64,000 nucleotides of DNA from an uncultured delta proteobacterium (GCA_963785235.1 CAWAUM010000005.1:561143-625142), one strand, 5' to 3'. Shown: positions 590-15,505, counted from the stretch's first letter. Program-made: numbers and translations. The notes: a model not told the origin generated them from the letters alone.

Positions 590-2450
590 GAGACCGTTGA
601 AAAAGCTGTTTTTGAAACGAAAGATTTCCCGGTACTTTGGTTAGTTGGTTAGTGTACTACCGATAGTCGCAGATTTTGGGTTTTATCGGACCATTCTTTG
701 GTTTCTTATCTCAACCTTCATATCTTTCTCTTCATGCAAAGCCATAATTAGCTATCTTTCCGATGTTGTGTACCATGCAGTACAGCAACCACTGGATATT
801 CACCTTGATCTTGCCCCTTACTGTGAACCGATCAAGCCGTTTGTGGGTGCGGATATTTGCGAACACCGGCTCTACTATGGCCATCCTCTGTGGGTAGATC
901 CTGCGTCCCTTCTCACTCTCGATCTTCTCTATCATAAGCTTGGTGAGGTTAATACCATCCGAGCCGATGGGAATGTTCAAGGTCTTTGGTCCACGGCCAT
1001 TGCCATATATGCACTTACCTCTTAACATACAACCGCTGCAGTCCTGTTCTTGTGCACCATATATTCGATAGAGCGTACCAGTACAGCGATGGCTCTTTAC
1101 CTTAAGACCTAGTTTTTTGCCGTTGGGGCATTCGTACTGATCGCTCTCCTCATCATAGTGGAAATCCTCCAATGCATAATGGGTCCTGATCGAGCGCCCC
1201 TTCCTTCCCTTAAACCGAGGATCTCTTGTACGGAATCTCTTATCAGGTATGTAGGCATCCATCCCTTCATCCATACACTTCTGGATATTCGCTTTGCTGT
1301 GATAGCCGCTGTCAGCAGCGAACATCGCCCCATTGAAGTAATCCCCGGGAAGACCTATCTCCTCCACGTTTTCCTTGGCCCCATCCACCATCGGAGGAAC
1401 AAGGTCATTATCATGGCCAGTACCGAATGCCTCCGCATGTACGATCACCTGTGTCTTGGAGTCCACTAGCGCTTGACCGTTATATCCCTGGATTGTCCCA
1501 TTGGATGTCACCATTTTCGAAGACTCGTTGTCTGTGATATTGCTCTTGATCTCCTTTCCATTCACCCCGAGACGCTCCCCGTTCTCCTTAAGCCATGCCT
1601 CGATACGATCAGCCTGCTTCTTCAGTTTTTCGATCTGTCTGCATCGGTAGGAACGATTATCAGGGGGAGTTGAATCATCATCTTCCTTCCGGTCTTCCTC
1701 TTCCTGTTCTGTCAGCAGTTCATTCACCTTCTCTTCGAGCTTCTGACGCTTCGCCCGTAACTCAGAAACCGTCCTGCTCCACTGCGGAGATGCATTGCAT
1801 GATAGCTTGCACCCGTCCAATGCGAAGAACGTTCCCCCGAGTAGCTTCATCTCTTCGCAAACAAGCAGTACATCCCGAAACAGCGGCAGAATCTCATCCT
1901 TCATGGAACTCACGAATGTGGAGATCGTGCTGTGGTCAGGGTACTGCCCGCAAGAAAGCGCCATGAATACTACATTCTCATGGCAGGCCTGTTCGATCTT
2001 CCTCGATGATGTCAGACCCCGTGAATACCCCAGCAATATCACCTTAAGCAGTATCCGTGGATCGTATGCACGCCGTCCTGTCTCATCATTCCTGTATTTT
2101 TCATCGAACAGGCTCATGTCCATACGCTCATCCACAAGCGTGTAAATCGCATACTCCAGACTCCCGGGCATGATCTGTTCCTTCAACCCTACCGGTATCA
2201 GCATGTCCTGTGCGTATGTGTAAGGTTTATACTTTGCCATGGTACCCTCTCGCTTCAGGAATAGGGAGATTCAGAAAGAAATCTTTCCCGTTAAGACAAT
2301 AACCTTATATCACATAATATATTGATAATAAAGATCTAATTTACTTTTTTATGAAATAATTGATCTGTTTAGGTCTTCTGAACTCGGATTCTTTTTTAAA
2401 TAAATGATCTGCTTCTATCCTTTGCGTTAGGAGGCTTTTTCAACAGTTTC
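590..2450 (-). mobile_element. IS1182-family insertion sequence, apparently complete
   Basis: Terminal IRs GAGACCGTTGAAAAAGC (590-606) and GCTTTTTCAACAGTTTC (2434-2450), 15/17 match; GCA on both flanks (587-589, 2451-2453); internal transposase. Confidence 0.9.
732..2240 (-). CDS. IS1182-family DDE transposase
   Basis: 502 aa with GRRAYDP, SSRKIE, PDHSTIS, ALDGCK, NITD, GYNGQ, ADSGY, Cys-rich insert and RMAIVEPVFANI motifs. Confidence 0.93.
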   Translation of the reverse strand: MAKYKPYTYAQDMLIPVGLKEQIMPGSLEYAIYTLVDERMDMSLFDEKYRNDETGRRAYDPRILLKVILLGYSRGLTSSRKIEQACHENVVFMALSCGQYPDHSTISTFVSSMKDEILPLFRDVLLVCEEMKLLGGTFFALDGCKLSCNASPQWSRTVSELRAKRQKLEEKVNELLTEQEEEDRKEDDDSTPPDNRSYRCRQIEKLKKQADRIEAWLKENGERLGVNGKEIKSNITDNESSKMVTSNGTIQGYNGQALVDSKTQVIVHAEAFGTGHDNDLVPPMVDGAKENVEEIGLPGDYFNGAMFAADSGYHSKANIQKCMDEGMDAYIPDKRFRTRDPRFKGRKGRSIRTHYALEDFHYDEESDQYECPNGKKLGLKVKSHRCTGTLYRIYGAQEQDCSGCMLRGKCIYGNGRGPKTLNIPIGSDGINLTKLMIEKIESEKGRRIYPQRMAIVEPVFANIRTHKRLDRFTVRGKIKVNIQWLLYCMVHNIGKIANYGFA

Positions 2451-12474: not shown

Positions 12475-12816
12475 ATGAGGAAAATACTGTTAGTAAGTGA
12501 TGATAAACGCACCCAGCTACTTCTCAATGAAGAGTTTGAAGATGGGTATCAAGTATTGACTGTGTCTAATAGGAAAGAAGCGCTTTCCCTATTAGCAAAA
12601 AATTCTAAAAAGCCAGACCTCGTTATCCTTGATCTCAGCGTACCTGAAAAAAGTAGGATTGATACTCTTGGCCATATATTAAAGCAAAAGTTTAAATTAC
12701 CCGTGATTATATTTCCAGCTTATAGCATCTTTAGGAAAGACACATTGAGAACAGAAATTGATACATACAGGGTTAGATCTTCAGATATTTCGGCGCTAAG
12801 AAAAAAAGGTCCATGA
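12475..12816 (+). CDS. Stand-alone receiver domain, degenerate
   Basis: KILLVSDD and PDLVILD present; conserved Thr/Ser and Lys appear replaced (IFPAY, VRSSD). Confidence 0.7.
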   Translation: MRKILLVSDDKRTQLLLNEEFEDGYQVLTVSNRKEALSLLAKNSKKPDLVILDLSVPEKSRIDTLGHILKQKFKLPVIIFPAYSIFRKDTLRTEIDTYRVRSSDISALRKKGP

Positions 12817-13448
12817 CCTGATATAGAGCTGAAGTGTAGATCATGTGTCATACCTGACACTCATATCTGGCCTGATTTCATTATAGATTATATTTTGAGA
12901 TTATCTGTTTTCAGTCCTTACAAAAGTGTCCGTCTATCGCAGGGATCAACGCTATAGGCAAACCGATGATTATGGTTAAAAGCATTCAGTAATCAGAAAC
13001 CACTGTTCATGGCAGAGACTGTTGCCCATTAAAAGGTTCTGTCAATGAGAAAATAGTTCTCCCATTACAAGAGCCGTTATCTCTTGCAGAGTTTACCATT
13101 GCGCCAGCACGGACGATTCTCCTTCTCTCCGATCTCGCATCAGTTATTTCTTTTTCTTGGTTACGATTCATTTATCCTGAACCGCACCAGTCACCCATCG
13201 GGATCAAGGTTGCCAGGTATGGCTGTTGCGAAGCGGAGAGACATAAGGAATCTCGGAGCGAAGAAACAGCCATACCTGCGTAACCCCTGGCCTGATATCC
13301 AGGCCCCAGAAAATCGTCTGTTCCCTGGTATGTCCAACTTATTTCTCAAAACCCTTGGCTCTATGTCCAAACTCGTATGGTTCATATCAGAGGCGGATCA
13401 GAAAGTGATTATCCTTCCCTGCTGAATAATCTTAAATTTAGAGGCATA

Positions 13449-13510
13449 GGGTGGTGGATCAATCAAAAAACAGTGGTTGTCGGCCAACAGTCTCCCCGAA
13501 CTCACCACCC
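13449..13510 (-). ncRNA. Putative bridge/seek RNA target-binding loop (part of a longer ncRNA in 13025-13518)
   Basis: 8-bp stem GGGTGGTG/CACCACCC enclosing two exact 10-nt matches to the two insertion junctions (13485-13494 vs 13015-13024; 13462-13471 vs 14615-14624). Confidence 0.8.
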
Positions 13511-13518
13511 CAGCCATT

Positions 13519-14544
13519 CTATGAGAACAAGGCCTCCTCCTTGAAAGGAACCTGATCTCTCATGATGTAATAGCAAGCACGGGAAAGCTTGTTTGCCAGT
13601 GCCTTCCTCGCAATAATAGGATTCGTTTCCCGTGACTTGCGCTGATAGTACGCATTTGCCCGTTCACTGTAGATTCTGGAAAAATTACTAGCTTCCATAA
13701 ATGCCCAGGCCAGATACTTGTTCCCGTTCTTTTTGTTGCCAACCCCTTTCTTCTTTCCATTGCTGGTGTGCACACTGGAGACACACCTGCAGTACGAGGA
13801 AAAATTGCCAACACTAGGGAATCGGGATATATTCCCTACCTCCAGCATGATGGTCATCGCCAGGATATCTCCGATACCGATGACAGTAAGCAGATTCTCA
13901 AACCCAGAGCGTATCTTTAAAACCTTCCGCACTGCCTTTTCTATGCTCGTTATGTGGTGGCCCAGGAAATCAACGATGTTCGTACTCACCTTCCCAGAGA
14001 ACAACAGATGTTCGTCGGTGAAGATCTTCTTCAAATCATCAGGGCACAGCTTCTTGATCCCTGCTCCATTTATTCGCATCCCCGTGTTCCGTTCAATCAT
14101 TGATTGGCATGAGAGGAGATTGGCTGTCCTGTGCCGCATCAAAAACGCTCTCTTCCTCAGCAGATCTCTTACCGGTCTGTCTTCCTTGGGGTAGATGTAC
14201 CCTTCTGGTAGAATACCAAGGATCAGAAGTTGAGCTAGCCAGAATGCATCATGACGGTCGTCTTTATACTTGATCCCTTCATATTGTTTGATCGCTGACG
14301 GATTCGCTAAATGTAAGCAACCATATCCCGCTTCCATCAACCCGTCGACCAGCCAGTACCAGTTGTATGTGCTCTCAACAACGATCCCCTTCACCTCATC
14401 ATGGTAAGGCTCCAACGCCTGTAGTATCTCACCAAGGTCATTATTGTGCCTATTCTGGTAAACCCTTCTTTTCGATTCACCTTCCATGATTCCCATGTAT
14501 GTGTTCCTTGAATGCAGATCCAACCCAACATACAGCTCTCCCAT
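13519..14544 (-). CDS. IS110-family DEDD recombinase/transposase
   Basis: YVGLDLH, VVEST, KDDRHDA (DEDD), GIGDILA, ISRF, TSNGK, GNKYL, ALANKL. Confidence 0.95.
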   Translation of the reverse strand: MGELYVGLDLHSRNTYMGIMEGESKRRVYQNRHNNDLGEILQALEPYHDEVKGIVVESTYNWYWLVDGLMEAGYGCLHLANPSAIKQYEGIKYKDDRHDAFWLAQLLILGILPEGYIYPKEDRPVRDLLRKRAFLMRHRTANLLSCQSMIERNTGMRINGAGIKKLCPDDLKKIFTDEHLLFSGKVSTNIVDFLGHHITSIEKAVRKVLKIRSGFENLLTVIGIGDILAMTIMLEVGNISRFPSVGNFSSYCRCVSSVHTSNGKKKGVGNKKNGNKYLAWAFMEASNFSRIYSERANAYYQRKSRETNPIIARKALANKLSRACYYIMRDQVPFKEEALFS

Positions 14545-14833
14545 AAGATGCCTCCTCTTTCTTTTTATCCGTTAACGGCTCTTATGATTTGTAGAGTGAA
14601 CCTTTTAGATGGCTATCAAAAAACCTTCACAGGATGGAACGTGATAAAAATCGACATCATAGAATGCTCTACGATGGAAGATCTTTTATCGGGGCTTGTG
14701 TTTTGATGGTTTAAATTTGGTGGTTTTTGAGATCGCCGGACTTTTTCAACAGACTCGCATGTAACATATATTCATACTGTAAATTATCTATACTAATACC
14801 CATTGTGTTTATGAGTATGTCTTGAGTATTCCA

Positions 14834-15505
14834 TTAAAGCAGCATGAAAGGGCTCATGGGCAACCATTTTTTCTTCCATCCATCAGAGGCGATCTGTTTA
14901 GTCAAAGCTGGAGGTATCTTTTTTGAAATAACAGCCCTTTCTGCAGGAGGAAGGTTATATAAGAGGAAAGGAACCACAAGATAATCCGGTACTGCGTGCT
15001 TGTGGATATATTCATTGAAGATTCTGCTAAGCCTTGTCTGTTCTCCATATCCGATTGCCATATCTATTTTGTCAGTGGTGAAATACTTTTCTTCAACCTC
15101 TATATGAGGATGCCATTTCTCTTTAGTGTCACCCAATTTTCTATTTAAGACTCCAAGGTGTTCTCCAAAGCTCCTACTTGACATCGGTTCTTCCATGGTT
15201 TTCACAATGCTATCAAGGTCATTCATCATATCCTGATGCTGCGTTCTCAGCATATCAAATGGTACTTCAGGCATTCTGTATTTCAGATATGGATATACGA
15301 TCTTGTCTTCGAGATGATGGTGACCGTTCATTACTGAGATGAGGCTTTTCACATAACTGATAAATCCCCTGTTTTTTGATTCATTGATATGTCTTGCCAG
15401 GCTGGAAGAATGACTGTATCCAAGAGCAACATAGAGACCTCGTGTAATCACAGAATGGATACGGATCAGGTCTTTTCCGATATCTGGTGTGTCACTAATG
15501 AACAT
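14834..15505 (-). CDS. Hemerythrin-domain protein
   Basis: IH, HHHLED, QH, HIEVEE metal-binding pattern. Confidence 0.82.
   Translation of the reverse strand: MFISDTPDIGKDLIRIHSVITRGLYVALGYSHSSSLARHINESKNRGFISYVKSLISVMNGHHHLEDKIVYPYLKYRMPEVPFDMLRTQHQDMMNDLDSIVKTMEEPMSSRSFGEHLGVLNRKLGDTKEKWHPHIEVEEKYFTTDKIDMAIGYGEQTRLSRIFNEYIHKHAVPDYLVVPFLLYNLPPAERAVISKKIPPALTKQIASDGWKKKWLPMSPFMLL

Follow-up and report, generated by a model that had tools for sequence, protein, structure and literature searches.

We analysed a 64,000-nt stretch of DNA from an uncultured delta proteobacterium (GCA_963785235.1, CAWAUM010000005.1:561143-625142; hereafter the window) and found that positions 13025-14618 on the minus strand very probably hold an intact RNA-guided insertion sequence of the IS1111 type within the IS110 family, whose guides appear to be written for the terminal repeat of IS1182-type elements. 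Throughout, G000 denotes the genome that hosts this element and G003 the genome that carries its 89% identical relative, L002. The features that carry the reading are, in window coordinates:

13025-14618, minus strand: IS1111-type element of about 1594 bp; similarity to L002 stops at both borders
13519-14544, minus strand: gene for a DEDD recombinase of 341 amino acids, an intact open reading frame with TAG as its stop codon
13443-13515, minus strand: predicted target-binding stem-loop of a seekRNA/bridge RNA, beginning 4 nt past the stop codon
13485-13494, minus strand: 5′ guide GAGACTGTTG, complementary to the right-flank top strand (in the orientation of the element) and identical at 10 of 10 positions to 13015-13024
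13462-13471, minus strand: 3′ guide GTTTTTTGAT, predicted to pair with the bottom strand, made up of the left flank GTTTTT, TG and the AT of the left end, and matching 14615-14624 at 10 of 10 positions

Just 3′ of the recombinase stop codon, the minus strand reads GGGGTGGTG..GAGACTGTTG..GTTTTTTGAT..CACCACCC, where the stem GGGGTGGTG/CACCACCC encloses the two guides. The 10-mer GAGACTGTTG occurs twice in the window, in the left flank of the element (13015-13024, plus strand) and in the loop (13485-13494, minus strand); 0.07 occurrences are expected, and none of 100 shuffles reached two. Its counterpart ATCAAAAAAC has four matches (0.13 expected), namely the complement of GTTTTTTGAT at 13462-13471 (plus strand), the junction at 14615-14624, and two chance sites at 15371 and 41182. 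At the sequence level, the top-strand match thus lies 5′ of the bottom-strand match, the arrangement of a seekRNA, which Siddiquee et al. place directly 3′ of the gene and with the same order of matches (PMC11187229). An earlier interpretation of the window, made from the sequence alone (the sequence-only reading), had equated the first guide with the left insertion flank and the second with the reverse complement of the right junction, and both agreements were borne out over all 10 positions. A scan of 12800-14900 against Rfam returned no relevant family, the single match being a chance-level hit to snoU2_19 (E 0.86) outside the element; a promoter and terminator scan gave counts like those of shuffles and nothing at the RNA region, and no run of T follows the stem.

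We then compared this region across relatives. The first ∼110 nt past the stop codon could be aligned across 162 loci, and the stem-loop was present in 142 distinct relatives, for which RNAalifold gave an 11-pair outer stem with compensatory changes at 11 of the 11 pairs. Paired cells made up 91.8% of the alignment compared with 75.3% in shuffles (0/500 as high), double-change cells numbered 355 compared with 106, and sliding the partner by one to three columns as a control lowered pairing from 91.8% to 31-56%. The stem encloses first GAACC-like bases, then a 5′ guide that varies and has UG at its end, next a small G-G/C-C hairpin, and after it a 3′ guide, again variable, followed by UG-AU-UGG.

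To set the element ends without recourse to the guides, we used a motif-anchored search for subterminal repeats, which fixed them in 104 of the 162 loci; it replaced searches for the longest exact match between RNA region and flanks and for free inverted repeats, both too noisy for this purpose. Seven loci with mis-set ends were removed by eye (L032, L034, L038, L041, L056, L113 and L122), as were duplicates and loci with short flanks, leaving 82-83 unique insertion sites from relatives of 50-89% identity. Over 82 sites, the 3′ guide matched 4.04 of the six left-flank bases (permutations, 2.11 ± 0.13) and the 5′ guide matched 5.96 of the eight right-flank bases 3-10 (permutations, 4.04 ± 0.13), and neither value was reached in 10,000 permutations. 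The guides therefore track the flanks, which is the covariation between guide and target that the sequence-only reading had asked for. Furthermore, the last bases of the 3′ guide, GAU, equalled the first three bases of the element in 65-79 of the 82 sites, depending on position; since GAU is kept in both guide and left end, the 3′ guide spans the product junction. This fits the earlier suggestion that the element-derived ATC in the second guide serves a pairing after exchange, as in the handshake documented for IS621 (PMC11208158). Taken with the stem covariation, these data support the view that the stem-loop is a conserved target loop of a seekRNA/bridge RNA.

The anatomy of the element is that of the IS1111 group. 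As defined there, a transposase of 330-350 amino acids is combined with subterminal inverted repeats of 11-13 bp, beyond which lie ∼7 bp on the left and 3 bp on the right (PMC11187229). The recombinase matched PF01548 (1.8e-9) and PF02371 (7.2e-14) in Pfam and scored 162 bits with the NCBIfam model NF033542, "IS110 family RNA-guided transposase" (cut-off 140); its 341 residues fall within the IS1111 range and align end to end with 17 relatives. Non-coding DNA amounts to 494 nt 3′ of the gene (13025-13518) and 73 nt 5′ of it (14545-14617). The element begins and ends, in its own orientation, as TGATAGCC...TTTTAATGGG, and the subterminal inverted repeats of 12-13 bp leave 7 bp outside them on the left (8 with the T of the TG core, see below) and 3 bp on the right:

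14598-14617, minus strand: left end, with the 7-bp extension GATAGCC followed by the subterminal repeat ATCTAAAAGGTTC
13025-13045, minus strand: right end, with the -35-like TTGACA (13040-13045), the subterminal repeat GAACCTTTTAAT and the 3-bp extension GGG

The motif TTGACAG was kept in all 10 of the aligned elements. DEDD and PF02371 domains, protein length, a long 3′ non-coding region (NCR) and subterminal repeats with 7- and 3-bp extensions were all found, in agreement with Pfam, NF033542 and the classification as an RNA-guided IS110/IS1111 element proposed earlier.

The element interrupts a terminal repeat. Its left flank GAGACTGTTG and the AAAAAC.. that follows the element together form the terminal repeat common to an intact IS1182 element and to miniature inverted-repeat transposable elements (MITEs) of ∼150 bp; the ∼17-bp MITE repeat is split after base 10. 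The relevant features are:

13015-13024, plus strand: outer half of the MITE terminal repeat, GAGACTGTTG, preceded by the 3-bp duplication GCA at 13012-13014
14619-14756, plus strand: remainder of the MITE, comprising the inner repeat half AAAAAC..., the body and the second terminal repeat (14741-14756), with GCA at 14757-14759
590-2450: intact IS1182-family element with a 502-aa transposase (732-2240, minus strand) and the ends GAGACCGTTGAAAAAGC / GCTTTTTCAACAGTTTC

By its sequence, the interrupted host is a 149-bp MITE with IS1182-type ends that encodes no transposase. Its remainder shows homology from end to end with copies at G000:C12:208-355 and in L002; further copies lie at G000:C2:265295-265441 and G000:C1:402387-402533, and those of G003 at C1:77342-77449, C6:192031-192138, C10:107324-107431 and C18:1582-1689. 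Inverted pairs span ∼95-150 bp, and the repeats in G003 stand ∼93-130 bp apart. The interrupted repeat reads GAGACTGTTGAAAAAC and the IS1182 ends GAGACCGTTGAAAAAGC / GAAACTGTTGAAAAAGC, with a 3-bp GCA duplication at both the IS1182 and the MITE. The IS1182 transposase was identified by NF033551 (312 bits, cut-off 270) and by PF13751, PF05598 and PF01609; the element is flanked by GCA at 587-589 and 2451-2453, and both of its ends are unoccupied. They differ from the 5′ guide at one position (GAGACCGTTG) and two positions (GAAACTGTTG), respectively.

Uninterrupted repeat-like sites in G000 and G003, some of which may be chance look-alikes, had five A in 23 of 24 cases, four A in one and six A in none, whereas both interrupted repeats, in the window and in L002, show six A. 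The additional A, at window 14618, is therefore element-derived, being the T in the TG of the element, and this comparison places the insertion exactly between GTTG and AAAAA. The sequence-only reading had rightly described an intact IS1182 between 590 and 2450, with its two ends as given above, and had recognised the interrupted site as an IS1182-type terminal repeat, which holds; the repeat belongs to a MITE, however, not to a full-length IS1182, and excision would not restore six A as had been supposed.

A second insertion supports the same target. A search of 41 related genomes returned the 89% relative L002 and a group of eight loci at 60-61% ("family 2"). Among genome contigs, the best 80 of 576 relatives contained one at 89% (L031, the L002 locus) and otherwise none above 62%; among metagenome contigs, the top match in the best 80 of 590 relatives reached 66%. 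When the NCR was searched as DNA against 122 genomes of the class, G000 and G003 alone had close copies. L002 shares both position and orientation within the repeat (GAGGCTGTTG^AAAAAC, the caret marking the insertion point), with unrelated outer flanks; as its host is another MITE copy, interrupted at the opposite end, the insertions arose independently, in keeping with the IS1182-type repeat named as target by the sequence-only reading. A 253-nt contig from run X3 begins to match the window at 13015, where the repeat starts, and continues to do so up to 13073; its preceding bases show no resemblance, which hints at a third insertion site. The nearest other relatives (68-69% in the NCR) occupy a different site, ..AGACC-TG-ACCCC.., and so the guides have been rewritten in the lineage of the window element. 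Such rewriting has been described for ISEc11/ISXne4 (PMC11187229).

Next, we considered the bases at the crossover. Of 83 related sites, 77 have a right flank that starts with TG, and T is the last left-flank base before GAT. For family 2, the uninterrupted REP-like site (repetitive extragenic palindrome) ..ACG-TG-CCA.. has five matches in G000 and ..ACGTTGCCA.. with the same prefix has none; the target thus has a single TG, and TG is found on both sides after insertion. On this evidence the clade has a 2-nt TG core, like the CT of IS621. Some 300 nt past the start of the NCR, CCTTGATCCYGATGGGTG-NN-TGGTGC is present in almost every relative; in the window element it corresponds to the following feature:

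13183-13211, minus strand: second conserved segment ACCTTGATCCCGATGGGTGACTGGTGCGG, consisting of the right end ATGGG, TG and two bases equal to right-flank bases 3-4

The NN dinucleotide equals right-flank bases 3-4 in 71 of 83 unique sites (permutations, 34 ± 3.4; 0/10,000 as high), and AC, CC, TC, CA and GC all track the right flank. In relatives whose right end is ..ATGGA, the motif becomes GATGGATG. We therefore regard 13183-13211 as a candidate for the donor-side counterpart of the 3′ target guide, complete with handshake. The donor-binding loop had not been located in the sequence-only reading; a candidate for part of it is now in hand, and a guide complementary to the left end was still not found. 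The stem arm ATGGCTGT was considered for that role and rejected, as it showed no covariation in L002.

These observations suggest how the element might work. The 3′ NCR would be transcribed into a seekRNA/bridge RNA whose first stem-loop presents two guides in an internal loop. On the right-hand side of the crossover, the 5′ guide would pair with the top strand (CAACAGTCTC); on the left, the 3′ guide would pair with the bottom strand (GTTTTT) and continue into TG and the AT of the element's own left end, fitting the product junction as a handshake. The second segment would repeat this logic at the other junction, with the right end ATGGG, TG and the AC of the target. Read together, the guides would spell GAGACTGTTG^AAAAAC, the terminal inverted repeat of IS1182-type elements and MITEs, and because they spell the repeat, insertion would occur in one orientation between repeat bases 10 and 11. 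The repeat would provide a multi-copy landing pad that travels between genomes, and the splitting of a transposon end would be a side effect. RNA production, a circular intermediate, the order of strand exchange and any effect on the host element are what we infer here from sequence.

Several observations weigh against an element that is active and fully understood along these lines. Programming against IS1182 ends (GAGNCTGTTG^AAAAA) rests on two full insertions and one partial contig from one genus (n = 2-3). None of the 24 sequencing runs looked through is recorded as RNA. Each genome holds one copy although exact matches to GAGNCTGTTGAAAAA number 10 in G003 and 3 in G000, and no insertion is present in the window's full IS1182; the element may move rarely or no longer. 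The predicted circle junction, TTTTAATGGG joined to TGATAGCC (13040-13045 with 14611-14618), has TTGACA 16 nt from the -10-like hexamer GATAGC, whereas most relatives have GATAAT, at 17 nt; by its hexamer and its spacing, the predicted junction promoter of this lineage looks weaker. A guide complementary to the left end was found neither in the NCRs of the window element and L002 nor in those of ∼90 relatives. Finally, CA stands at the crossover of the target instead of the TG found in 77/83 related sites. Here and in L002 the left junction has TG and the right junction CA, no base being common to both; the loop's conserved 3′ UG would pair perfectly with the target CA, but because the target has CA, the TG of the donor-side segment misfits the right junction of the window element.

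These points bear on how the association between guides and flanks should be explained. An accidental match, with the stem-loop acting as a terminator or a protein-binding hairpin, would account for the position of the hairpin directly after the stop codon, but for little else: chance would produce the two 10-mers 0.07 and 0.13 times in 64 kb, the family-wide permutations gave 0/10,000, and the stem is followed neither by a T-run nor by any signal in the terminator scan. We consider this explanation to have a negligible chance of being correct. An element that was once inserted by the RNA-guided route and is now immobile, so that the match between guides and flanks is the fossil of a single old event per lineage, deserves more attention. 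It would agree with the one copy per genome in spite of many free targets, with the weak GATAGC at the junction and with the mismatched CA core. Against it, the open reading frame is intact, and at 14% nucleotide divergence the window recombinase and that of L002 have a ratio of nonsynonymous to synonymous substitution (dN/dS) of 0.079. The two copies have the same stem-loop and identical guides, a stem change (A:U to G:C) keeping the pairing, and the opposite ends of different MITE copies imply movement after the elements of the two lineages had diverged. Contigs from runs of other studies also contain pieces identical to the window element or 2-3% diverged from it. They cover the element in pieces, none of them spanning an empty site or a circle junction, and the joints within them that link motifs conserved in distant relatives were disregarded. 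Overall, we judge immobility since a single old event to be unlikely.

A third possibility retains the RNA-guided element and questions its relation to the host transposon: the IS1182-type repeat may be simply the most abundant harmless repeat that fits, so that the split has no selected role and perhaps no effect. Family 2, at 60%, uses the REP-like ..ACG-TG-CCA.., and the nearest relatives use ..AGACC-TG-ACCCC..; members of the IS1111 group are described in REP sequences, attC sites and Tn21 ends (PMC11187229). Both hosts are non-autonomous MITEs, and the full IS1182, whose ends mismatch the 5′ guide at one and two positions, is unoccupied. We lean slightly toward this view. The sequence-only reading had preferred a hyperparasite that immobilises its host, wording that would go beyond the observations in that the host in both known insertions is a MITE and not an autonomous IS1182; as the two views differ only in a selected effect, which lies beyond sequence, nothing here separates them. 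Returning to the RNA-guided element as such, a bolder proposal is that recombination in this lineage joins a donor with a TG core to a target with a CA core, coupled with a possible disabling of the ends of other transposons. TG and CA are reverse complements, and the exchanged strands would form two G·T wobbles. We put this forward tentatively and hold it to be rather doubtful; if true, it would amount to natural RNA-guided recombination across non-identical cores, and the core would be no fixed constraint on aiming such recombinases.

The insertion sequences IS4321/IS5075 reportedly insert in the terminal repeats of Tn21-family transposons. They offer the closest functional precedent, an IS1111-type element at a fixed position and in a fixed orientation inside the terminal repeat of another transposon; unlike them, the element studied here has as its host an IS1182-family insertion sequence or MITE with a ∼17-bp repeat instead of the 38-bp repeats of the Tn3 family, and a bacterium of a different phylum. 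It resembles the IS1111 elements with described seekRNAs (ISEc11, ISKpn4, ISPst6 and ISPa11; PMC11187229) in its DEDD transposase of 330-350 amino acids, its long 3′ NCR and its 7- and 3-bp extensions. The RNA region directly 3′ of the gene, the order of the guides, the single orientation per target and the redirection by guide rewriting are likewise shared with those elements; it differs from them, as far as that account goes, in having an IS1182-type repeat as target, a CA crossover in place of the TG of its own relatives, and an RNA that is predicted from sequence. With the IS621 bridge RNA it shares guides in an internal loop that would pair with both strands around a 2-nt core, handshake bases, and, with a candidate on the donor side, separate segments for target and donor (PMC11208160, PMC11208158). 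In IS621 as described there, the RNA lies 5′ of the recombinase; here it would lie 3′ of the gene, with the guide order reversed and a TG instead of a CT core, and the donor-side segment is no obvious copy of the target loop; the target loop is complete, and on the donor side the left-end guide was not found.

We found no report in the literature of an IS110/IS1111 element that targets IS1182 ends, although the supplementary target logos of PMC11187229 and PMC11208160 may list similar targets. As far as the sequences tell, what is new is the target class, IS1182-type ends, together with an unexplained core; the kind of element is itself known. IS1182-family repeats would stand beside Tn21-family repeats as a second class of transposon end for IS1111-type elements, reached by natural reprogramming of both guides inside a clade that otherwise inserts at unrelated sites. 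With CA in place of TG, the core offers a tangible case in which donor and target would depart from the rule of matching cores. The nesting of one mobile element in the ends of another may curb the spread of MITEs and IS1182, and the comparison of ∼160 loci gives a clade map of target loop, TG core, handshake bases and donor-side segment that could guide the engineering of IS1111-type recombinases.

Some further observations concern the relatives and the landing sites. The host genome has one full copy of the element and a decayed 43% relative on contig C12; the locus G000:C12:145384-146409 (L017, L022, L030) is a decayed IS110-family recombinase gene, 43-45% identical, with internal TGA and TAG stops. 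Most relatives (L047-L190, from Desulfobacterota, Nitrospirota, Gammaproteobacteria and others) have guides for ..AGAYYT-G-ACCCC.., with the 5′ guide ..GGGGUUG. On their outer sides the MITEs are mostly bordered by ..TGGCA and GCAC.., a pattern that suggests a preference for a palindromic site. The 60% IS1111-type relatives (L003, L015, L005, L016, L021, L027 and L029) cross over at the TG of a REP-like palindrome, ..GATnACG-TG-CCAnnATC.., and in G000 IS1182-type elements and MITEs insert a few bases from that TG (duplication GCA), so that two unrelated transposon families have one landing site. In L085 and L142, the right flank starts with TGCCTTTTAATGGG, so that the right end of the element is present twice, which may reflect a tandem or nested insertion.

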